Origin: a bacterium
GTDB lineage: Bacteria > Patescibacteriota > Minisyncoccia > Phycocordibacterales > UBA9973
Direction of reading: 5' to 3'
NCBI GenBank assembly: GCA_037130655.1
Contig: JBAXSP010000001.1
Coordinates: forward strand, 37,641-101,640
Length of the DNA: 64,000 bases
The first letter of the stretch is position 1. Each line of letters opens with the position of its first letter. Positions 1,454 to 61,136 of the stretch are shown piece by piece. The position numbers and the translations under genes were made by a program. The notes under the pieces were generated by a model. It made no database searches. It had not been told where the DNA came from and worked only from the letters and a program-made list of their open reading frames with translations.

Positions 1454-1690
1454 ATGGCAATAACAAATGTTGAAATAAAGAAAAATAACAACGAGAACGG
1501 AACAAGTACTATCCGTCGCTTTACTCGTAAAATGCAAGAAACAGAAATTGTAAAACTAGTAAAATCTCGTCGTTATGCGACTCGAAAGCCCTCTAAGCTT
1601 TCACTCAAGGATGGAGCTCTTAAGAAGATTGCAAAACGTGCAGTATATCAAAAGATGCAAAAATTGGGCAAAGTCATTCCAAAAAAATAA
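1454..1690 (+). CDS. rpsU: 30S ribosomal protein S21
   Basis: 78-aa basic protein with the ...RRF.RK....EIVKLVKSRRYATRKPSKLSLKD...KR S21 signature. Confidence 0.85.
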   Translation: MAITNVEIKKNNNENGTSTIRRFTRKMQETEIVKLVKSRRYATRKPSKLSLKDGALKKIAKRAVYQKMQKLGKVIPKK

Positions 1691-1695
1691 AGACA

Positions 1696-2109
1696 ATGGA
1701 TACGATTACGACTAACAACTTAGAAGTAATACGAATGACAAAAGGCAAGCTTCCCCGCTTGCCTTTTGCTAGTTTCAAGGAAAAAATCTTGGGCAAAAAA
1801 TATTCACTCACGATTGTTTTTGCAACACCGACACATATCCAAAACCTGAACAAACAATATCGACAAAAAGAATATGTTCCAAACGTACTTGCTTTTCCAC
1901 TCGATACAAATGCTGGAGAATTATATTTGTCACTCGGCACCATTCGCAAAGAAGCACAAAAACACGACTACACATACGAACAATTCATTGCATATTTACT
2001 TATCCACGGACTTCTTCATTTGAAAGGATACGATCACGGTAGTACAATGGATAACGAAGAGAATAAATTCAAAAAATTCTTCAACGTCACAGAGAAGTCG
2101 AAAAACTAA
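1696..2109 (+). CDS. ybeY: rRNA maturation endoribonuclease YbeY
   Basis: HGLLHLKGYDH zinc-binding motif (H-x3-H-x5-H) near the C-terminus; 137 aa. Confidence 0.85.
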   Translation: MDTITTNNLEVIRMTKGKLPRLPFASFKEKILGKKYSLTIVFATPTHIQNLNKQYRQKEYVPNVLAFPLDTNAGELYLSLGTIRKEAQKHDYTYEQFIAYLLIHGLLHLKGYDHGSTMDNEENKFKKFFNVTEKSKN

Positions 2110-2164
2110 TTAACCTTTTTACAAGCAAGAATTACATCACTTTTGTAATTCCTAACAAAATCAT

Positions 2165-3328
2165 TTGATGAAGCAACTAATTGTCGGTATTGATATTGGA
2201 ACACATCTCACTCGTGTGACGGTATCCGCTACAACACGCGAAAATCCAGTACCACAGATCATTGGTTTCGGACAAGCTGAATCAAAAGGACTTCGTCACG
2301 GCTATATCGTCAATCCGCAAGATGCAACAATGAGCATCAAACAAGCGGTCTTGAATGCCGAAGAAAACACGAGTATCAAAATCAAAAAAGCTATCATTTC
2401 AATTGGTGGTATTAGTTTGTCGTCTGAATACGCAGTTGGTAGTGCTATCATCTCTCGTGCCGACAAAGAGATCTCTCCTATCGATATCAGTAATGCAATC
2501 AATGACAGTGAACAAAATTTGATTCTCACCAACAAACGTATTCTTCACCGTGTTCCGGTTGCTTACAAAGTTGATGGCAAATTGATTTCTGCGCGACCAG
2601 ATGGATTGAAAGGTATCAAACTCGAAGCAAAAGTATTGTTCGTCACTTGTTTGTCACAACACCTTGATGACTTACTTTCTGCAGTAACCAATGCTGGTAT
2701 TGAAGTAATGGACGTTGTCGCGAGTCCATTTGCAGCATCTTCTGTCACTCTTTCTTCAAAACAACGTACTGTCGGTAGTGTGCTCGTAGATATCGGATCT
2801 GAAACAGTGTCGATTGTGGTGTTTGAAAACGACATTCCTCTCACACTCCAAGTCTTCGGTATCGGCGGAGCTGAAATCACCAAAGACATTGCGCTCGGAT
2901 TCAAGATTCCATATGACGAAGCAGAAGGAATCAAAACAGGTTCTATTATGAGTGACCTGTCTCGCAAAAAATTGGATGAAATTATCCAAGCTCGACTCAC
3001 TGATATTTTTGAATTAGTCGATGCTCATTTGAAGAAAAATAAATGTAGCGGATTACTTGCGGGCGGTGCGGTGATTATGGGAGGTGGTGCACAATATCCA
3101 TACATCGAACAATTGGGCAAAGATATTTTGCGATTACCAGTCAAACTCGCTGATCCGGATATTTGGGGTAGTTCAAAAAATAGATTACGCGATTCATCGT
3201 GGTTTATCTCTGCAGGACTTTGTACTGGAATGTTTGGAAGTGGTGTAGATATGGAAGTAGACAATACTTCATTTATCCAAACAATCAAAAAGTTGTGGAA
3301 GAATGTTGTGCATCAGTTGATGCCATAA
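2165..3328 (+). CDS. ftsA: cell division protein FtsA
   Basis: Actin-like ATPase with N-terminal GIDIGT motif; 387 aa, immediately upstream of ftsZ. Confidence 0.9.
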   Translation: MMKQLIVGIDIGTHLTRVTVSATTRENPVPQIIGFGQAESKGLRHGYIVNPQDATMSIKQAVLNAEENTSIKIKKAIISIGGISLSSEYAVGSAIISRADKEISPIDISNAINDSEQNLILTNKRILHRVPVAYKVDGKLISARPDGLKGIKLEAKVLFVTCLSQHLDDLLSAVTNAGIEVMDVVASPFAASSVTLSSKQRTVGSVLVDIGSETVSIVVFENDIPLTLQVFGIGGAEITKDIALGFKIPYDEAEGIKTGSIMSDLSRKKLDEIIQARLTDIFELVDAHLKKNKCSGLLAGGAVIMGGGAQYPYIEQLGKDILRLPVKLADPDIWGSSKNRLRDSSWFISAGLCTGMFGSGVDMEVDNTSFIQTIKKLWKNVVHQLMP

Positions 3329-3372
3329 AACAAAAGAGGCGGAACACTTCGTGTTCCGCCTCTTTTGTTTTT
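3327..3372 (+). terminator. terminator after ftsA (21-bp stem; core GGCGGAACACTTCGTGTTCCGCC)
   Basis: Long perfect hairpin followed by a T-run. The identical 23-nt core recurs at 5829-5863. Confidence 0.7.
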
Positions 3373-3519
3373 ACTACACCTTAGCATCAAGAAGTGTTGT
3401 TTGGCCGATTTTTATATGATAAAAATCGGCCCTGTCAACATTGTTCCATTTTCTCTGGCGTTGGTATATACTCTCTTTGCACATGCCCTGTGCCTTACCC
3501 GTAATCTATATAAGAATGT

Positions 3520-4719
3520 ATGCCTAGACTAAACCCAGACGTAGAATCATTCATCCGAATCAAAGTGATCGGTGTTGGTGGTTCTGGAAAAAACGCATTG
3601 AACCATATGATCAATTCCAAAATCAAAGGAGTTGACTTCATTGCGATGAACACTGATACCCAAGACCTTCACAACTCACTCGCTGAAGCCAAAATTCATA
3701 TCGGGAAAAACTTGACCAAAGGACAAGGTGCCGGAATGAATCCAGATGTTGGACGCCGAGCAGCCGAAGAAACCAAAGCTGAAATTCAAGATGTCATCAA
3801 AGGTGCACATATGGTATTTATCGCTTCTGGTATGGGAGGTGGAACCGGAACAGGCGCAGCACCAATCGTTGCAAAAGCAGCAAAAGAACAGGGCATTCTC
3901 ACTGTGGCTGTTGTCACAAAACCATTTTCATTCGAAGGTAATCAAAGAATGAGACTCGCAGAACAAGGTATTGCAGAACTCGAAAAAGAAGTTGATGCAA
4001 TCATTGTTATTCCAAACGACCGATTGCTTTCAATCGCTTCAAAAGATATGGGATTCAAACAAGCATTTGCTATGTGTGATGAAGTGCTTCGACAAGCAGT
4101 TGAAGGTATTTCTGACCTCATTACAATTCCTGGTCAATTGAACCTCGACTTCGCTGATATCTGTGCAGTCCTTCGTGACGCAGGAACAGCACTCATTGGT
4201 GTTGGTACTGCTGGTGGTGAAGACCGCGCACGCAAAGCCGCACTTGATGCGATCAATTCCCCACTCCTTGATATTTCTATCAACGGTGCACGTGGTGTAT
4301 TGCTTTCTATTGCAGGTGGCGACGATCTAGGAATTCTCGAAATCAATGAGGCAGCCAAAATCGTTACTGAATCTGTCGACAAAGATGCGAAAGTTATCTT
4401 CGGTACAACATTTGATGATCGTTTGAAAAAAGGCGAAATCAAAATCACTGTCATCGCAACTGGTTTTCCAGTAGACACTCCTCGCAAATCTTTGTTTGAA
4501 AGAAATGCAAGTCCTGTGCAACAACAGCAACAACCTGTTCAAAAAGTAGAACAACGTACAGAAAGTACTTTCCCTATCAAAAAAGAAATTCACGAAACAG
4601 CTCCAACAGAAGGACTTCTTCGCAAAGCAGACAATGAAATTCCAACAGAAGAAACTGATGAAATCACTGACGAAGATGACTGGGGAACAATTCCAGCATT
4701 TCTCCGAAGAAAGAAGTAG
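3520..4719 (+). CDS. ftsZ: cell division GTPase FtsZ
   Basis: GVGGSGKNA N-terminal motif and GMGGGTGTGAAP tubulin signature; acidic C-terminal tail. Confidence 0.95.
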   Translation: MPRLNPDVESFIRIKVIGVGGSGKNALNHMINSKIKGVDFIAMNTDTQDLHNSLAEAKIHIGKNLTKGQGAGMNPDVGRRAAEETKAEIQDVIKGAHMVFIASGMGGGTGTGAAPIVAKAAKEQGILTVAVVTKPFSFEGNQRMRLAEQGIAELEKEVDAIIVIPNDRLLSIASKDMGFKQAFAMCDEVLRQAVEGISDLITIPGQLNLDFADICAVLRDAGTALIGVGTAGGEDRARKAALDAINSPLLDISINGARGVLLSIAGGDDLGILEINEAAKIVTESVDKDAKVIFGTTFDDRLKKGEIKITVIATGFPVDTPRKSLFERNASPVQQQQQPVQKVEQRTESTFPIKKEIHETAPTEGLLRKADNEIPTEETDEITDEDDWGTIPAFLRRKK

Positions 4720-4720
4720 A

Positions 4721-4842
4721 AGCTAGCTACTAGCATTTAGCTTCTAGCGACTAGCTAAAACAAAAAGAGCGACAACCGAAGGTTGTCGCTCTTTTTGTTT
4801 CGATACACTAGCAACTAGTCACTAGAAACTAGAACCTAAAAA
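4721..4842. repeat. CTAG-type tandem heptamer arrays flanking the ftsZ terminator
   Basis: Left arm agctagc tactagc atttagc ttctagc gactagc. Right arm acactagcaactagtcactagaaactagaacctaaa, which is nearly identical to 50238-50272. Confidence 0.7.
4757..4800 (+). terminator. terminator after ftsZ (20-bp perfect stem AAACAAAAAGAGCGACAACC / GGTTGTCGCTCTTTTTGTTT)
   Basis: Perfect inverted repeat seen directly. Flanked by heptamer-repeat arms at 4721-4755 and 4806-4842. Confidence 0.75.
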
Positions 4843-4863
4843 TTTCGTGCTATAATTTTTTCT

Positions 4864-5817
4864 ATGCAAACAAACACTACTACAAATACAACTATCTATG
4901 ACTTAGCCATTGTCGGTGGCGGACCTGCTGGTTGTGCAGGTGCAGTATATGCAGCCCGTAAACGGCTCAAAACAGTCTTTCTAACGTCAGAATGGGGCGG
5001 ACAGTCTGTTGTATCCGAAGGTATCGAAAACTGGATAGGAACGCCAGTTATTTCAGGTGCCGACTTGGCCAAAAGTCTCCGTGAACACGTAGAAAAATAC
5101 GATGGCGACTATTTACACATCGTCTCACCTACTTGGGTCAAAACAATTTCAAAAACAGACGGAGGTTTCCAAATTGAACACTCAAAGGGCGAGATTATCA
5201 CTGCCAAAAGTATTTTGATTGCTACTGGTTCAGGGCGTCGCAAACTCGAAGCCAAAGGTGCAGATATATTTGAACACAAAGGACTGACCTATTGCGCAAG
5301 TTGTGACGGGCCACTCTTTGCTGATCAACCAGTTGCGGTCCTCGGCGGAGGAAATGCCGCATTCGAATCCGCAGCTCAGTTGCTCGCCTACTGCTCGCAT
5401 GTATATCTGATCCACCGAAGCAATGACTTCCGTGCTGATCAAATCACGATTGATAAATTGAAGACCAATCCAAAACTCACCATCATCACCAATGCCGATG
5501 TGACTGAAATCACTGGCGACAAATTTGTTGAAGGATTGTCATATCTCGACAAGACGACAAACGAACAAAAAGAACTCACGGTCTCTGGAGTGTTCGTAGA
5601 AATCGGCCAAATTCCAAATACTGATATTGTGAAGGGGTTAGTCGACATCGACAGTCACGGAAAAATCGTCATTGATCCGTGGACTGGCATGTCATCAGTT
5701 GCAGGTATCTGGGGCGCGGGAGATTGTACCAACATCCGCTATCACCAAAACAACATTGCCACAGGTGAAGCGGTCAAAGCTTTAGAAGATATCTATCAGT
5801 GGTTGCATAAGCAGTAA
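4864..5817 (+). CDS. trxB: thioredoxin-disulfide reductase
   Basis: FAD-binding GGGPAG, redox-active CASCDG and NADPH-binding GGGNAAFE motifs; 317 aa. Confidence 0.85.
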   Translation: MQTNTTTNTTIYDLAIVGGGPAGCAGAVYAARKRLKTVFLTSEWGGQSVVSEGIENWIGTPVISGADLAKSLREHVEKYDGDYLHIVSPTWVKTISKTDGGFQIEHSKGEIITAKSILIATGSGRRKLEAKGADIFEHKGLTYCASCDGPLFADQPVAVLGGGNAAFESAAQLLAYCSHVYLIHRSNDFRADQITIDKLKTNPKLTIITNADVTEITGDKFVEGLSYLDKTTNEQKELTVSGVFVEIGQIPNTDIVKGLVDIDSHGKIVIDPWTGMSSVAGIWGAGDCTNIRYHQNNIATGEAVKALEDIYQWLHKQ

Positions 5818-18100: not shown

Positions 18101-18270
18101 AGATGTATATTATATCGTATATGTTTTGGAATCCTAAGCACAAAAAGAGAATTGCACTGATTTGGAAGATTATCTGCCTTTTGGTGGTAATCAGTATGAT
18201 TATGTTGTACATTCCGTCATTACTTAGATAGTCAGTATTTTAGATTATAGAGTATAGACAATTCAAGATA

Positions 18271-18300
18271 CAGGACGACCTTCGGTCGTCCTGTATTTTT
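18271..18300 (+). terminator. orphan plus-strand-oriented terminator (CAGGACGACCTTCGGTCGTCCTG + T7)
   Basis: Hairpin with a UUCG loop followed by a T-run on the plus strand only. No plus-strand gene lies upstream. Confidence 0.45.
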
Positions 18301-18337
18301 TATATTCTGAAATACTATACTCTTATATACTTTTTCC

Positions 18338-55492: not shown

Positions 55493-55574
55493 AATTTATA
55501 GAGAAATTATAGCAAAGAAAATGGTTTTTGGCTTTGTTTGACAAATAATTATAATACTATATAATATATACAGT

Positions 55575-55626
55575 GTTTAATTGGTTATTTTTATTCCTTT
55601 ATGGGACTAAAAATAACCAATTAAAC
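55575..55626. promoter_or_regulatory. perfect 19-bp inverted repeat with 14-nt spacer (GTTTAATTGGTTATTTTTA ...N14... TAAAAATAACCAATTAAAC)
   Basis: Exact reverse complementarity of 55575-55593 and 55608-55626, about 12 nt upstream of the start of 55638..55958. Confidence 0.6.
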
Positions 55627-55637
55627 TAAAGTACATT

Positions 55638-55958
55638 ATGCATTTATTAGAAATTTTAAAAACGAACGGAACAGGTCTATTACAAGGACTCTGCCGTCCA
55701 AAAGAATATGATTCTTTTCCAGAAATTCCCAAATTGTTAACAGGAAATCAAAATACTGACCCTGCAAATATACAATTTTCCCTTAATGAGAAATACTTAG
55801 GAGAGTGTGAAGTTAAATTTACAGCACTCCATAGTGATGATTTAGGTGCTGTAGCAATATCTACAGATGAAAAAATTTCTTTTGATTTTACATGGGAAAA
55901 CGATTGTAGTGATCATTGTTACTTTAAAGCAACACTGTCTCAATCAAATAGAAATTAA
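55638..55958 (+). CDS. hypothetical protein
   Basis: 106-aa ORF followed by a terminator at 55974-56004. Confidence 0.45.
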   Translation: MHLLEILKTNGTGLLQGLCRPKEYDSFPEIPKLLTGNQNTDPANIQFSLNEKYLGECEVKFTALHSDDLGAVAISTDEKISFDFTWENDCSDHCYFKATLSQSNRN

Positions 55959-55973
55959 TATAATCCCATATTT

Positions 55974-56004
55974 AAAAGCCCGCCGAATGCGACGGGCTTT
56001 TTTT
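55974..56004. terminator. bidirectional terminator (AAAAGCCCGCCGAATGCGACGGGCTTTTTTT)
   Basis: Hairpin with an A-run and a T-run between convergent genes. Confidence 0.7.
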
Positions 56005-56006
56005 AT

Positions 56007-56981
56007 TTATCCATTTTTTCTTAAAACACCGATCAGTTCGTCAGAGAATTTTTTGACTGATTCGTCATCAAAGAGTGACACAACAAATACTGGTTTGCCG
56101 AGCTTTGAAAATTCTTTTTCAGTACTCTTGATTGTCGCTTCATCGGTCACGTCAGTTTTTGTTAGAAGAATTATTTCATCTTTTGCATCAAGTCCGTTTG
56201 CGTATTGTTCCAATTCTTTACGAATCTGTTTGTATGTTTCCATCATATGTTCGTTTTCGAAAGAAACAAGGTGTACCAACATTTTTGTGCGTTTGATATG
56301 GCGGAGGAATTTTGTTCCAAGTCCTTTCCCTTCTGAAGCACCTTCAATCAATCCTGGAATATCTGCAAGAATGTATCCATAGAAATCTCCCAAGTTCGGA
56401 TCAAGTGTCGTAAATTGGTATGAACCAATTTTTGCTTTGGCATTAGTTAGTGCATTCAAAAGAGATGATTTGCCAGCATTTGGTAATCCAACAAAACCAA
56501 CATCAGCAAAAAGTTCAAGTTCAATATGAAAATCTGCTTCGTCACCTTCTCGTCCAGGAGTTGCACGTTCGGGAGTAGTGTTGGTTGATGATTTGAAATG
56601 TTCATTTCCGAGTCCGCCTTGCCCACCACGAAGCACGATAACTTTTTCATTTTCTTTGAGTACGGTAAAAGAGAAACTGGTTGTCTTGTTGGTCACAATA
56701 GAACCGACTGGCACATCGATAATGCAGTCTGCCCCATCAGAACCATGTTTACTACCACCCATTCCAGCTTCACCGTTTTCTGCTTCAAAACTACGCTTGG
56801 CTTTGTAACGAGCGAGAATGCTAACATCGCGAATACCGCGAATATAGACATCACCTCCACGTCCACCATCACCACCGTTTGGTCCACCTTTGTCGATGTA
56901 TTTTTCTTGACGCCAACGAACAACACCGTTTCCTCCGGTTCCCGCTTTGGCACTAATTGTTACTTCGTCGATCAATTGCAT
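56007..56981 (-). CDS. obg: GTPase Obg/CgtA
   Basis: Obg fold N-domain (Gly-rich GGDGG repeats), G1 GLPNAGKSSLL, and G3 DIPGLIEGAS. Confidence 0.95.
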   Translation of the reverse strand: MQLIDEVTISAKAGTGGNGVVRWRQEKYIDKGGPNGGDGGRGGDVYIRGIRDVSILARYKAKRSFEAENGEAGMGGSKHGSDGADCIIDVPVGSIVTNKTTSFSFTVLKENEKVIVLRGGQGGLGNEHFKSSTNTTPERATPGREGDEADFHIELELFADVGFVGLPNAGKSSLLNALTNAKAKIGSYQFTTLDPNLGDFYGYILADIPGLIEGASEGKGLGTKFLRHIKRTKMLVHLVSFENEHMMETYKQIRKELEQYANGLDAKDEIILLTKTDVTDEATIKSTEKEFSKLGKPVFVVSLFDDESVKKFSDELIGVLRKNG

Positions 56982-57031
56982 AGTTTAAAGTCGTTAGTCT
57001 ATTAGTCACTTAGTCGTTAGAATGTGAAAAT

Positions 57032-57388
57032 CTATTTGCTTGTGTTTTTTATTAATACTCTAAGTATCTTAAGGATTTCAGTAAGAAGATTTTCAACATT
57101 TTCATACTTTTCTATATTACCATATTTTAATCTTTTTGCAATAGTAAGATGTGTTTCAATTTCTGCACCTGAAGCGAATGCGATTAATAAAAATCGTTTA
57201 AACTCAACTTCTCCTCCTCTCATCCTACCTTCTGCAATGTTTGCAGAAATAGAAACAGCAGCTCTTCTTGTCTGAGAAATCAATCCATATCTTTCATCTT
57301 CTGGAAAATCTTTGAGGAGCTCATAGACAGCAATAACAAGGTCTATACTTTTTTGCCAAACAATGAGATTCTTATAATTTTCATTCAT
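57032..57388 (-). CDS. four-helix-bundle protein (23S rRNA IVS protein / Avd-like family), paralog 2
   Basis: NLIVWQKSIDLV...RRAAVSISANIAEGRMRGGEVEFKRFLLIAFASGAEIETHL. Flanked by inverted heptamer arms at 56984-57024 and 57399-57432. Confidence 0.8.
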   Translation of the reverse strand: MNENYKNLIVWQKSIDLVIAVYELLKDFPEDERYGLISQTRRAAVSISANIAEGRMRGGEVEFKRFLLIAFASGAEIETHLTIAKRLKYGNIEKYENVENLLTEILKILRVLIKNTSK

Positions 57389-57420
57389 ATGTTTTTCTAT
57401 ATGACTAAGCGACTAACAGA

Positions 57421-58329
57421 CTAATTGACTCCTATAAGTGCCTTAGTTGCTATCTGCATCGCACTTTCTTTTGTTTTGGTCACACATAAAAATCTGCAGT
57501 TGTGACAGAAAACAACATCAGAAACACCTGTCGTTTGTTCGAGTTCTTTTTCTTTCAAACCTGCCCAACTTTCAGGAAACTTTTTACGCGGAGTAAATTC
57601 ATTATTTGAATCCTTAATAGTCTCTACTCGCCACCCTCCTCCTGTACCACTTCTCGGAAGCACCACAAACAACACTTCTGGTTTTTCAAGAAGCACTGAA
57701 TTCAAATCATATCGCGAGACATATTCATCGAGTACCAAGATGCTTTTTTCTGGACTTGATTCAAACACAGACAAAATCATTTGTTTTTTTGTAATAAAAC
57801 TGGTGGCTTTGCGAATTTCACCAGAGAGAATTTCTTGTGCGAGCGAAACTGCATTCATAAATGCTTTATATTTCTCTTTGTCTGTGGCAGTATCCAATGC
57901 TTCAATACTAGAGAGCACATCATTGATTGTGTATGGGAAAATACTTGCTTCTTTGATACAACTCATTCCATTGTCGATTGCATCGATCGGAAAAACGAGT
58001 CGCTGTTCAATCATACTTGCAACCTCTTCGTTTCCATTACACACAGATACTCCGTACTCTTTCCATACCAGACCAAACGATGCATACGGAATCGTATTTG
58101 TTCGAACACCTGCACCGCCAATTTGATGATGATCAAAACGGTTAATAGAAGCATCATACACACCACCGACATCAATTACGAAATCTGCTTTGTCTATTTC
58201 TTTTTGATCACGCGTACGAATGACACGAATAGCACCTTTCAAAAAAAGTGAAAGTGTGGCGCAAGCAAAAACATCATCTGCGTGATAACTACCATTGTGC
58301 ACCGCGATTGTTTTTTTCAGAAACCACAT
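57421..58329 (-). CDS. MYG1/UPF0160-family metal-dependent hydrolase
   Basis: N-terminal HNGSYHADDVFA, and conserved His cluster RFDHHQ; 302 aa. Confidence 0.7.
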   Translation of the reverse strand: MWFLKKTIAVHNGSYHADDVFACATLSLFLKGAIRVIRTRDQKEIDKADFVIDVGGVYDASINRFDHHQIGGAGVRTNTIPYASFGLVWKEYGVSVCNGNEEVASMIEQRLVFPIDAIDNGMSCIKEASIFPYTINDVLSSIEALDTATDKEKYKAFMNAVSLAQEILSGEIRKATSFITKKQMILSVFESSPEKSILVLDEYVSRYDLNSVLLEKPEVLFVVLPRSGTGGGWRVETIKDSNNEFTPRKKFPESWAGLKEKELEQTTGVSDVVFCHNCRFLCVTKTKESAMQIATKALIGVN

Positions 58330-59510: not shown

Positions 59511-59966
59511 TTAAGCATTAAACAAACCGTCTATCACCTCCTTAACGGTACTGCCGTCTGCTTTACCTTTGAGCTCTACCATAACTTCTTTCATCAACAA
59601 TCCTTTTTTAGTTGGATCAATCTCGCCCAGCTTTGTCATAATAGCTTTGACCTGTTGTTCAACTTCTTCTTTACTCATCATTGTTGGTAAAAATACTTCG
59701 AGCACTTTCAATTGTGCTTCTTCTTCAACAACCAAATCCATTCGTCCTCCTTTGGTAAATTGTTCGATGGAATCTTTGCGTTGTTTTGCAAGACGAGTAA
59801 TTACTTTCAAACACTCTTCATCTGATAACTCTTCTTGTGGTTTTCTACCAGTTGCTACAAGTTCATTAGTAAAAGCAGATGACAACCCACGCATTACATC
59901 AAGACGGACTTGATCTTTTGCTTTCATTGCCTCCTTTATGTTGTTTTTTATATCTTCAAAAATCAT
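59511..59966 (-). CDS. yqeY: GatB/YqeY-domain protein
   Basis: YqeY motifs (IKEAMKAKD..RLDVMRGL, KQRKDSIEQF.KGGRMDLV.EE, GKADG..VKEVI); about 150 aa from the internal Met. Confidence 0.75.
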   Translation of the reverse strand: MIFEDIKNNIKEAMKAKDQVRLDVMRGLSSAFTNELVATGRKPQEELSDEECLKVITRLAKQRKDSIEQFTKGGRMDLVVEEEAQLKVLEVFLPTMMSKEEVEQQVKAIMTKLGEIDPTKKGLLMKEVMVELKGKADGSTVKEVIDGLFNA

Positions 59967-60006
59967 ATAGAAAAGTATATCAGAATATAGATAAACAGAG
60001 TATAGA

Positions 60007-60363
60007 CTAGCGATTTCGCTCAATTAATTTATTTAACATTCTCATTATTTCTGATAATTTTTCATATAGTTCGATTTCCTCTTTTTTAGAAACATATTTT
60101 AATCTTTCAGCTATTTTTATTTGAGTATCTAGTTCAGCCAAAGACCCTAGTGACATAGTTAAAAAATGAGCGAAATCTTTTTGAGTATTACGACGACTTC
60201 CTTCAGCAATATTTGAAGGTACTGAAATTACAGCTCTTCGTATTTGAGATGTAAGTGCATAATCTTCATTCTTAGGAAATTTTTTAGTAATCTCGTAAAC
60301 AAATATGACAAAATCCATACTCTTTTGCCAAACAACCAATTTTTCATAATCATGCATCTGCAT
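60007..60363 (-). CDS. four-helix-bundle protein (23S rRNA IVS protein / Avd-like family), paralog 3
   Basis: KLVVWQKSMDFV...RRAVISVPSNIAEGSRRNTQKDFAHFLTMSLGSLAELDTQI. Flanked by TATAC-type inverted arms at 59975-60011 and 60381-60412. Confidence 0.8.
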   Translation of the reverse strand: MQMHDYEKLVVWQKSMDFVIFVYEITKKFPKNEDYALTSQIRRAVISVPSNIAEGSRRNTQKDFAHFLTMSLGSLAELDTQIKIAERLKYVSKKEEIELYEKLSEIMRMLNKLIERNR

Positions 60364-60422
60364 ATATACATATTGTATCCTCTATATTCTAAAATACTAT
60401 ACTCTGATATACTTTGTTTTAT

Positions 60423-61136
60423 ATGAATCTTATCTTTTTGGACACCGAAACAACCGGCATCGGACCCGATGATTATCTCTGCCAATTGGCATATAAGCAT
60501 AATGACGAAGTTTTTTGCGAACTCTACAATCCTGGCAAGAAAATTCCTCCAGAAGCAAGTGCGGTGACACACATTTCAAATAAAATGATCGAGGGAAAAC
60601 CCTCTTTTCGAGAAAGTGCCGACTATCAAAGAATAAAAAGTTTGCTTGAAAATCCTGAGAATATTTTTGTTGCTCACAATGCAAAATTTGATCTGATGAT
60701 GATCAACAAAGAAGATATCATTCCCGCAAATGTGATCTGTACATTGCGTGTTGCTCGATATCTTGATCCGGAACACAAAATTCCACAGCACAAATTGCAA
60801 TTCTTGCGATATTATTTGGAAATTGAAATCGAAGCACAAGCCCACGACGCACTCGGTGACGTACTAGTACTCGAACAACTTTTCCCTCGTTTGTATAAAA
60901 AAATCGCCGAAGAAGTTGGCGAAGAAAAAGCGTTGGAAAAAATGATTGAGGTCTCATCGCGACCATCAATGATGTATTCATTCTCTTTTGGTAAGCATCT
61001 TGGCAGAACAGTAGCTGAAGTTGCACAGATTGATCGTGGTTATTTGGAATGGCTGCTCGCTTCAAAAGAAAAAGATGCACCAGACGATGAAGACTGGATT
61101 TACACCCTGCGTCACCATTTAGGAAAATTAGTATAA
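60423..61136 (+). CDS. DnaQ-like 3'-5' exonuclease (DEDDh) with C-terminal DUF3820/ExoX-C-like domain
   Basis: Exo I FLDTETTG, Exo II HNAKFDL and Exo III HDALGD motifs. C-terminal FSFGKHLGRTVAEVAQIDRGYLEWL. Confidence 0.8.
   Translation: MNLIFLDTETTGIGPDDYLCQLAYKHNDEVFCELYNPGKKIPPEASAVTHISNKMIEGKPSFRESADYQRIKSLLENPENIFVAHNAKFDLMMINKEDIIPANVICTLRVARYLDPEHKIPQHKLQFLRYYLEIEIEAQAHDALGDVLVLEQLFPRLYKKIAEEVGEEKALEKMIEVSSRPSMMYSFSFGKHLGRTVAEVAQIDRGYLEWLLASKEKDAPDDEDWIYTLRHHLGKLV

Follow-up and report, generated by a model that had tools for sequence, protein, structure and literature searches.

The intervening sequences (IVSs) of the 23S rRNA genes of Leptospira, Coxiella burnetii, Azospirillum and other bacteria carry an open reading frame (ORF) of about 120 amino acids that belongs to the S23p or four-helix-bundle (4HB) protein family, PF05635. 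Its first description is reportedly that of Ralph and McClelland, published in 1993. The Coxiella IVS, situated at helix 45, is 428 nt long, contains an S23p ORF and has a 28-bp terminal stem that RNase III cuts; ahead of the start codon stand three to four GACAGAT heptamers in tandem, their number varying between strains, and the authors of that study argued that S23p is not even translated there (PMC4990558). Here we describe a cassette with a gene of the same family that lies between two protein-coding genes, MYG1 and obg. It was found in a 64,000-nt stretch of a Patescibacteriota genome (GenBank assembly GCA_037130655.1, contig JBAXSP010000001.1, positions 37,641 to 101,640 of the forward strand), which we call the window.

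Two other kinds of sequence bear on this cassette. Tandem heptamer repeats are said to have been reported in cyanobacteria about 1990. In REPIN-RAYT systems, a small gene is flanked by an inverted short repeat and the same repeat is dispersed as intergenic, hairpin-forming doublets; different RAYT paralogues go with different repeat families. The cyanobacterial repeats known as STRRs have a 7-bp unit, are arranged in tandem and form hairpins in the gaps between the genes of operons (PMC2670836). Tandem heptamers were reported in 2015 for Xanthomonas and Beggiatoaceae (PMC4692102, PMC4679880). In Xanthomonas, the GGGAATC repeats show a striking enrichment, and X. campestris has about 70 inverted pairs of them in convergent orientation (PMC4692102); the TAACTGA repeats of Beggiatoaceae close all three frames, overlap upstream stops and are oriented to downstream starts (PMC4679880). 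All three kinds of array are intergenic, a role in translation or transcript stability has been suggested for them, and none has an established function (PMC2670836, PMC4692102, PMC4679880). S23p and 4HB genes are mentioned in neither of the 2015 papers, according to a term search (PMC4679880, PMC4692102). The 4HB family has been reported as "CRISPR-associated" (PMC3936711). Avd, the accessory protein of diversity-generating retroelements (DGRs), binds an RNA stem-loop as a pentamer, all five protomers placing the same residues on flipped-out bases (bioRxiv 10.1101/2023.10.23.563531). The full-text literature, with subscription literature not covered, yielded no description of S23p cassettes outside rRNA that have tandem-array arms and no link between such genes and heptamer repeats.

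The protein encoded by the window gene is a member of the PF05635/TIGR02436 family. It matched PF05635 over profile positions 1-104 of 106 (E 1.7e-35; 121.9 bits, cutoff 33.8) and TIGR02436, "four helix bundle protein," with 115.9 bits (cutoff 24). The family motif has been printed as GxxRxxxSxxxNxxE (PMC3936711); its core, R42-S46-N50-E53, is present, and the pattern Q39-x-x-R42-x-x-x-S46-x-x-x-N50-x-x-E53 is invariant in all three copies of the gene in the window. The nearest solved structure was that of XCC0516 from Xanthomonas campestris (PDB 2GSC, E 2.4e-20). Both this entry and that of another homologue, 2RLD, contain five chains, and from these homologues we infer that the window protein forms a homopentameric barrel.

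The gene appears to lack a promoter and is bracketed by inverted arrays of 8-nt units, of the TAG type upstream and of the CTA type downstream (Table 1). Read along the gene strand, the upstream arm is TAG GAGTCAAT TAG TCTGT TAG TCGCT TAG TCATA TAG. The original prediction had described the arms as imperfect reverse complements, and a repeat search recovered them in the same places, as a 22-nt pair (56994-57015 and 57403-57424) with 91% complementarity and 387 nt between. The arms are indeed complementary, but they are not the plain inverted repeats that had been supposed: each is itself a tandem array, and equally good pairings therefore exist at a shift of 8 nt. The upstream arm had correctly been said to overlap the MYG1 stop codon, which is one of the array TAGs. 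The downstream arm had been said to abut the obg start codon; the array actually stops 8 nt short of the ATG. It begins 11 nt past the 4HB stop, and the upstream array ends 8 nt before the 4HB ATG. In agreement with the earlier claim that the cassette takes up the entire intergenic space, the 439-nt spacer between MYG1 and obg is filled by it (about 445 nt overall, arms of 22-30 nt), the spacers on either side of the 4HB gene (32 nt toward MYG1, 50 nt toward obg) being almost wholly arrays. By direct reading of the sequence, the TAGs of the upstream array occupy all three reading frames; the 8-nt period thus shuts every frame.

We asked how unusual such flanks are. Among 117 window ORFs of at least 90 aa, the three PF05635 ORFs had the top three flank-complementarity scores (36-37), the next ORF scoring 22 and the median ORF 14; hence, the arms are not a product of chance. 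A scan of the gene strand inside the cassette found no promoter-like and no terminator-like site. When folded as RNA, the cassette gave a continuous 22-bp terminal stem with six outer pairs in both the minimum free energy (MFE) and the centroid structure (overall z-score -3.5), and both DNA mismatches between the arms became G.U pairs on the gene strand.

Table 1. Coordinates of cassettes, arrays and hairpins (window positions, except for the Xanthomonas rows, which refer to the loci named)
Feature	Position	Strand	Description
MYG1 gene	57421-58329	minus	PF03690, E 1.8e-67
MYG1 stop codon	57421-57423	minus	second TAG of the upstream array
Upstream array	57397-57434	minus	five gene-strand TAGs, spacings 11, 8, 8, 8 nt; TTAGTCNN units
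Repeat unit in RNA letters, five-unit form			(UAGUCNNU)5
4HB (S23p / 23S_rRNA_IVP) gene	57032-57388	minus	118 aa, intact ORF
Downstream array	56990-57020	minus	CTAACGA CTAAGTGA CTAATAGA CTAACGAC, reverse complement of upstream units
obg	56007-56981	minus	PF01018, E 7.9e-50; ATG at 56981
Cassette 1	49822-50271	minus	4HB ORF 49861-50226, between frr (ribosome recycling factor) and an rseP-like M50 peptidase gene
Cassette 1 arms	49822-49853 / 50239-50271		CTAGT-type 7-nt units
frr stop TAG	50269-50271		first unit of the cassette 1 array
Cassette 3	59965-60422	minus	4HB ORF 60007-60363, upstream of yqeY
Cassette 3 arms	59965-60006 / 60381-60422		TATAG-type
ORF-less hairpin A	4717-4838		between ftsZ and a thioredoxin-reductase-like gene; cognate of cassette 1
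Hairpin A, parts	4717-4754; 4758-4800; 4808-4838		6-unit TAG array; perfect 20-bp hairpin + T-run; inverted array
ORF-less hairpin B	18224-18333		cognate of cassette 3
Hairpin B, parts	18224-18259; 18270-18294; 18301-18333		left array; GC hairpin with T-run; right array
Xanthomonas 4HB gene (L190, L191)	1501-1881		
Xanthomonas 4HB gene (L192, L193)	1501-1830		

The cassette shares with the S23p-encoding rRNA IVSs the PF05635 ORF, the element size class (about 430-470 nt), terminal inverted repeats that form a stem of more than 20 bp around the ORF, arms of short tandem units upstream of the start codon (four to five 8-nt units in the window) and a purine- or G-rich upstream array on the gene strand. 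Like them, it has no promoter of its own and would be carried by the host transcript. Given the match in arms, spacing and overall length, the window cassette is, in its anatomy as read from the sequence, an IVS that has a messenger operon, not rRNA, as its host. It differs in its location between MYG1 and obg (Rfam finds only tRNAs, and no rRNA, in the window) and in its 8-nt, TAG-bearing units, through which the array supplies the stop codon of the upstream gene. Experiments have established that RNase III excises rRNA IVSs; for the window cassette, such excision is a prediction.

The MYG1-obg cassette is not the only one of its kind. The original prediction counted two cassettes in the window; tblastn located two further 4HB copies, 37-47% identical to the one between MYG1 and obg, which brings the number to three. 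As had been proposed, the arms fall into subfamilies, the three cassettes having different unit types and unrelated arm sequences, and the design of inverted flanks around a 4HB gene is nonetheless kept in all three. The terminal stem also appears in the MFE and centroid folds of each. In the region 60381-60425, the upstream arm of cassette 3 ends exactly at the ATG (60423) of a divergent RNase T-like exonuclease gene; both promoters would therefore need to lie within the TATA-rich arm or within coding sequence.

A scan of the window for TAG chains returned 11 arrays where 3.1 were expected. Two pairs of arrays contain no ORF, and each is cognate to one of the other two cassettes. In hairpin A the array begins at the ftsZ stop codon, the fold has a z-score of -6.2, and the arms have 19/19 and 28/31 nt in common with those of cassette 1; in hairpin B the right array is identical at 36/41 positions to the arm of cassette 3 at 60375-60415. 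The TTAGTC type found in the arms of the MYG1-obg cassette has no second copy in the window, while the other two arm types have one ORF-less copy each. These ORF-less pairs are of the heptamer-repeat kind. Like cyanobacterial STRR, Xanthomonas GGGAATC, Nostoc GGGGA(C/T)T and Beggiatoaceae TAACTGA repeats, the window arrays are intergenic and often lie within operons, comprise at least three and up to about a dozen tandem units of about 7 nt, and are frequently paired in convergent, inverted orientation, an arrangement that can fold into hairpins. Closure of three frames and overlap with upstream stops are features in common with the TAACTGA arrays. Unlike the heptamer repeats as they have been described (PMC4679880, PMC4692102), the window arrays bracket a 4HB gene.

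Is the cassette an addition to the MYG1-obg junction or an old part of it? A MYG1 protein query retrieved 72 metagenomic loci, in which the gene order holin-like / VTT / MYG1 / obg / gatB is widely conserved. Both the MYG1 and the obg ends could be located in 42 loci. In these 42 syntenic junctions, all from other Patescibacteria, the median length of the MYG1-obg spacer was 33.5 nt, with extremes of -1 and 338, and none contained a 4HB homologue, even at E<=1. The original prediction had suggested asking whether orthologous junctions are empty: all 42 lack the gene, and the contrary outcome, a gene carried by every relative, did not occur. These are distant relatives, with MYG1 identities of 38-47%; the searched collections held no close relative of the window genome (best full-length MYG1 match, 47%; best 4HB match, 65%). 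The short, gene-free spacers in the 42 junctions show that the window cassette is an insertion into a conserved MYG1-obg(-gatB) string and that its junction is in the derived state.

Thirty-nine of the 42 junctions have plain short spacers; neither of the two long spacers (L045 and L053) contains arrays or a 4HB gene. The other three junctions, from three distant lineages without a 4HB gene, hold a solo five-unit CTA array immediately before the obg ATG (L018, 4893-4923; L035, 1889-1919; L054, 769-799). The array, CTAAAAA CTAATCA CTAGATA CTAGTCA CTAACT, sits in a 44-nt spacer in the position and orientation of the downstream arm in the window. In all 405 kb of MYG1 loci there are only three TAG/CTA arrays of at least four units, and all three are these. 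We conclude that this junction has repeatedly gained or lost such sequences. The solo arrays could be remnants of a lost cassette or a landing site that was there beforehand.

We then looked at related genes elsewhere. When one genome per species was scanned with an alignment of the three window proteins, 80 loci were recovered, most of them from Patescibacteria. None lies inside rRNA by rRNA motifs and Rfam, the sole motif hit (L137) being unconfirmed. Flanks were surveyed for 83 genes in 78 genomes by local alignment of the 80-nt upstream flank to the reverse complement of the 80-nt downstream flank, with shifted windows as controls. The median score was 25 for the 4HB genes and 13 for the controls (95th percentile, 18; 99th percentile, 20; maximum, 23); 71% of the genes exceeded the 95th percentile of the controls, and 65% exceeded the 99th. 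The arms are built alike, from TAG followed by 4-5 variable bases upstream and from complementary units ending in CTA downstream. Upstream chains most often have five units (35 genes), followed by four (18), six (4) and seven (1), and control windows almost never reach three. TAGs are spaced by 7 nt in 162 cases, by 8 in 61 and by 9 in 15; chains of TAA or TGA are not used in the upstream flanks of the surveyed cassettes. Arms also covary. A flank scored a median of 25 with its own partner and 14 across cassettes, and the true partner ranked first among 86 in 24 cases and within the top five in 48. One locus departs from the usual scale: in a Kiritimatiellia metagenome-assembled genome (L140, 2037-2364), TAGTGGC TAGTGAC TAGTGGC TAG is repeated seven times at 54-nt spacing upstream of the 4HB gene, an array of arrays that amounts to a higher-order tandem repeat.

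The cassettes are fitted closely into their operons. The upstream ORF is co-directional in 74 of 86 cassettes, and 56 of these 74 ORFs stop at TAG; in 38 cassettes the stop belongs to the TAG chain, of which it is the first unit in 29. Between the last TAG and the 4HB start codon that follows it, the median distance is 11 nt. On the other side, the gene downstream runs in the same direction in 67 of 82 cases, and its start is a median of 4 nt past the last CTA unit. With the stop inside one array and the next start so close to the other, the cassettes thus seamlessly replace the intergenic spacers within operons. The 389 kb of 4HB-gene loci contain about 170 arrays, and the gene is no more than 120 nt away from 119 of these. 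About 50 lie away from it, often as adjacent inverted pairs, and the TAGNNN units of such gene-less arrays match the arms of the local cassette in 48% of cases and those of other loci in 21% (p = 1e-5).

The design is not confined to Patescibacteria. Homologues on cyanobacterial plasmids, found by tblastn, are co-directional with the operons that contain them, except for an opposite-strand case in a ribonucleotide reductase (RNR) operon. Their sites are RNR beta/alpha, cas6/cas4 (in two genera), cas10/cmr3, parA/parB and conjugation operons. Most of the flanks that we inspected are tandem arrays of 7-9 nt, mostly G- or purine-rich upstream and pyrimidine-rich downstream, such as (GTAGGGA)x8 / (TCCCTAC)x5, (AGGGAAC) / (GTTCCCT)x7 and (GGGTGTA) / (TACACCC); one locus (L198) has no flanking array. 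In Riemerella (Bacteroidota), a 4HB gene in the suf operon has AAGGTTY arrays. Five viral contigs carry the same combination of gene and arrays. The Azospirillum lipoferum homologue is inside a 23S rRNA gene (Rfam LSU, 1786-4984) at the helix-45 position, with 36-nt arms (2939-2974 and 3372-3407) that are 86% complementary, lie 397 nt apart and consist of four to five GAKGACR heptamers.

Xanthomonas provides a connection to the heptamer repeats. In X. citri and X. campestris (L190-L193), orthologues of XCC0516 lie between accB and accC. In E. coli, as in many other bacteria, accB and accC are direct neighbors in the accBC operon. The arms, GGGAATC-GGGAGTG-GAGAATC-GGGAATC-GG and its complement, are 30 nt long, 87% complementary and 383 nt apart, so that in arm length and spacing both the Xanthomonas and the Azospirillum elements match the window cassette. 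Since the Xanthomonas arms are GGGAATC, the arms of this 4HB gene are the genome's own dispersed heptamer repeat, a situation that parallels the cognate ORF-less hairpins of the window. Taken together, these loci show the design of a gene within inverted short-period arrays in Patescibacteria, Cyanobacteriota, Bacteroidota, Xanthomonas and viral contigs.

Several observations concern the stability of the cassettes. Two proteins (P0083 and P0006), sampled in 20-24 contigs each, always occur in a single genomic context: the former ahead of the PrgI-TraC-TraG type IV secretion operon, the latter between corA and cysS, where the corA stop is the first TAG. At the corA-4HB-cysS loci (L168-L174), the copy number of a 43-nt block that includes the downstream CTA array varies with the strain (2, 3 or more); strains that differ in block number encode an identical 4HB protein, and several assemblies break into runs of N there. 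This variation recalls the strain-variable heptamer number of Coxiella. The position of the gene ahead of PrgI is conserved in many Paceibacteria-like genomes (L175-L184; L074, L101, L126, L129, L144); the site between alaS and pgi is a second conserved position (L099, L108, L115), and both positions are common to different candidate phyla-level groups. Such clade-wide conservation indicates long vertical inheritance.

We found no direct repeat of at least 5 nt abutting the arms of the window cassettes that could be a target-site duplication (TSD), and the neighboring genes that we examined include no transposase in or beside the cassette. Recent transposition is not supported, identical proteins having always occupied one context in the sampled contigs and TSDs being absent. 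A conventional insertion sequence or miniature inverted-repeat transposable element (MITE) does not describe the cassettes either: there is no TSD, there is no nearby transposase, and the copies are only 37-47% identical.

The 4HB protein is homologous to Avd, likewise a pentameric, positively charged four-helix-bundle barrel, and it has a weak match to the Avd-related hidden Markov model PF22296 (E 2e-5). Membership in the Avd proteins of DGRs was nevertheless rejected, its NF033474 score being 23.1 bits against a cutoff of 80 (27.9 and 42.8 for the other copies). Neither a reverse transcriptase nor a template or variable repeat was noted among the neighboring genes, no search being aimed at such repeats; the genes within about 4 kb are yqeY, holin-like, VTT-domain, MYG1, obg, gatB and beta-lactamase-like genes. 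The gatB-obg spacer (55493-56006) measures 514 nt, where many relatives have only about 15-100 nt between obg and gatB. It contains a 106-aa ORF on the opposite strand (55638-55958) that matched nothing in Pfam and, at 55538-55565 (+), a perfect match to a sigma-70-like promoter. The likeness to REPIN-RAYT is one of analogy only and extends to the layout and to the paralogue-specific repeat families; unlike RAYT, the 4HB protein is not an HUH/Y1 transposase and has no known catalytic activity, and its repeats are tandem arrays rather than single palindromes.

How might the cassette work? We favor, as somewhat better than an even bet, the reading that it is an IVS-type 4HB cassette outside rRNA, co-transcribed with its operon, whose arms pair as an RNase III-type stem and whose pentameric product may bind the arrays. 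Co-transcription with MYG1 and obg would be expected because the genes share a strand, the spacers are filled by arrays and no promoter- or terminator-like site interrupts the gene strand. Translation of MYG1 would end at the in-frame array TAG, and the other TAGs would shut the remaining frames and keep ribosomes out of the stem; the TAG array would thereby act as a barrier at which the upstream ribosome is halted at the foot of the stem. In the transcript, a duplex of 22-28 bp would form between the arrays and enclose the ORF in a loop of about 390 nt. RNase III could cut this duplex as it does in the Coxiella IVS, freeing the 4HB RNA and separating the MYG1 and obg messages. The pentameric protein probably recognizes the arrays or the stem, much as Avd recognizes an RNA stem-loop. 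We regard the RNase III-type stem and the pentamer-bound array as compatible halves of one mechanism, the stem having the better precedent and array binding being the more novel.

Several of our observations weigh against this IVS-type reading. Arm mismatches in 47 cassettes show no bias, with 41 G.U and 37 A.C on the gene strand; the lack of a G.U excess means that pairing at the RNA level is not separated from pairing at the DNA level. Fifteen percent of aligned arm positions are mismatched. About 29% of surveyed genes have control-like flank scores, mostly on account of short downstream arrays, such as roughly one gene in three has. Arrays can be direct rather than inverted: the cas6-4HB-cas4 locus of a Pseudanabaena plasmid (L162) has (AAAGCTA)x15 upstream and (AAAGCCA)x9 downstream, and an Oscillatoria plasmid (L197) has G-rich arrays in direct orientation on both sides. 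The ORF-less arrays flank a terminator-like hairpin, and a transcript that ended there would not reach the distal array. A search confined to the window detected no RNase III signature. Finally, a model in which any stem will do explains neither the tandem 7-8-nt periodicity nor the exclusive use of TAG in Patescibacteria, features that point to recognition by a multimeric protein.

That last consideration leads to the alternative that survives best, which overlaps the IVS-type reading and which we hold tentatively, at rather less than even odds: the arrays are primarily binding platforms, as RNA or single-stranded DNA, for the cognate 4HB pentamer. Each paralogue would act in trans on its own array family, including the ORF-less hairpins, and would control its own translation as well as the processing, stability or termination of the host transcript, arm pairing being secondary. 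Upstream arrays have a mode of five units with a sharp drop above it (35 genes with five, 4 with six, 1 with seven), and the family is pentameric to judge from 2GSC and 2RLD, with five chains each, and from the title of Lin et al. Array length outside Patescibacteria, however, runs from 4 to 15 units and is not fixed at five. The position of the last TAG, a median of 11 nt ahead of the start codon, and the strict use of TAG, with neither TAA nor TGA, count in favor of this reading. So do the pairing of each of the three window paralogues (37-47% identical) with its own arm family, two of which recur as ORF-less hairpins; the excess of TAGNNN units that gene-less arrays share with local arms (48% versus 21% elsewhere, p = 1e-5); and the flanking of the Xanthomonas gene by GGGAATC, a heptamer family enriched genome-wide. 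Common descent and concerted evolution of tandem repeats could nonetheless produce within-genome unit similarity without any recognition. All five Avd protomers touch the RNA stem-loop with the same residues, but array binding by S23p proteins would be an extension of that case by analogy, and the Coxiella authors argue that S23p is untranslated there (PMC4990558).

A DNA-level mobile element is, in our estimate, unlikely. The arrays would then be terminal or subterminal repeats for a recombinase supplied in trans, or one needing the 4HB protein; the ORF-less hairpins would be nonautonomous, MITE- or REPIN-like derivatives; and TAG stop codons would be preferred targets. Presence and absence at the MYG1-obg junction fit this idea, as does the finding that the only three arrays of at least four units in 405 kb are solo arrays at that same junction. 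The ORF-less cognates are 88-100% identical to cassette arms, the upstream stop is the exact starting point of the array in 29 of 38 cases, against one-third expected for a random frame, and the family occurs on viral contigs and plasmids and in many unrelated operons (accBC, suf, cas, par, type IV secretion, RNR). Against mobility stand the lack of TSDs and of a transposase in or beside the cassette, the divergence of the window copies (37-47% identity, with 65% for the closest protein elsewhere), the single context of identical proteins in 20 and 24 contigs and the long vertical inheritance implied by clade-wide positions (alaS-4HB-pgi and 4HB-PrgI). On present evidence, a purely DNA-level transposon is less likely than the RNase III-type stem or the pentamer-bound array.

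Host punctuation, in which the array hairpins would be ordinary STRR-like operon marks (all-frame stops with stabilizer or terminator stems) that are older than the gene, the 4HB ORF having merely lodged in one loop, fits the solo CTA array before obg in three lineages without the gene, the terminator-like hairpins flanked by ORF-less pairs at gene ends and the translation or transcript-stability role suggested for intergenic STRR, GGGAATC and TAACTGA arrays, but we consider it improbable, given 3 arrays in 405 kb without 4HB genes versus about 170 in 389 kb with them (119 within 120 nt), arm families that are paralogue-specific and the same anatomy inside rRNA, where stop codons are irrelevant. 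A generic stop-codon barrier as the sole explanation was rejected, since there are no TAA or TGA arrays and units that are not stops are found in other phyla.

Returning to the IVS-type reading, we conclude that IVS anatomy is not specific to rRNA: it is a general way of embedding PF05635 genes in operons, seen in at least five phyla, with arms built from the host genome's own short-period repeats. For the annotation of Patescibacteria, this explains the recurrent insertions of about 450 bp in tight, conserved operons. The label "CRISPR-associated" (PMC3936711) can be reinterpreted, cas operons being merely one of many operon homes. In X. campestris, the accB-XCC0516-accC arrangement surrounds the very protein whose crystal structure is known, which makes these ideas directly testable. 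Two old puzzles are thereby joined, namely, the role and mobility of the rRNA-IVS ORF and the purpose of tandem heptamer repeats; the recurrence of the design across bacterial phyla links an orphan protein family with the enigmatic heptamer repeats of bacteria. It is conceivable, though we would not count on it, that S23p/4HB pentamers are the missing trans-acting partners of 7-8-nt tandem arrays (STRR, GGGAATC, TAG and possibly TAACTGA). If so, each 4HB paralogue would be bracketed by, and act on, its own array family, with the scattered ORF-less hairpins as its other targets. The ORF-containing and ORF-less IVSs of rRNA would then be the rRNA-resident members of a single bacteria-wide system of gene plus repeat, RAYT-REPIN-like in layout.

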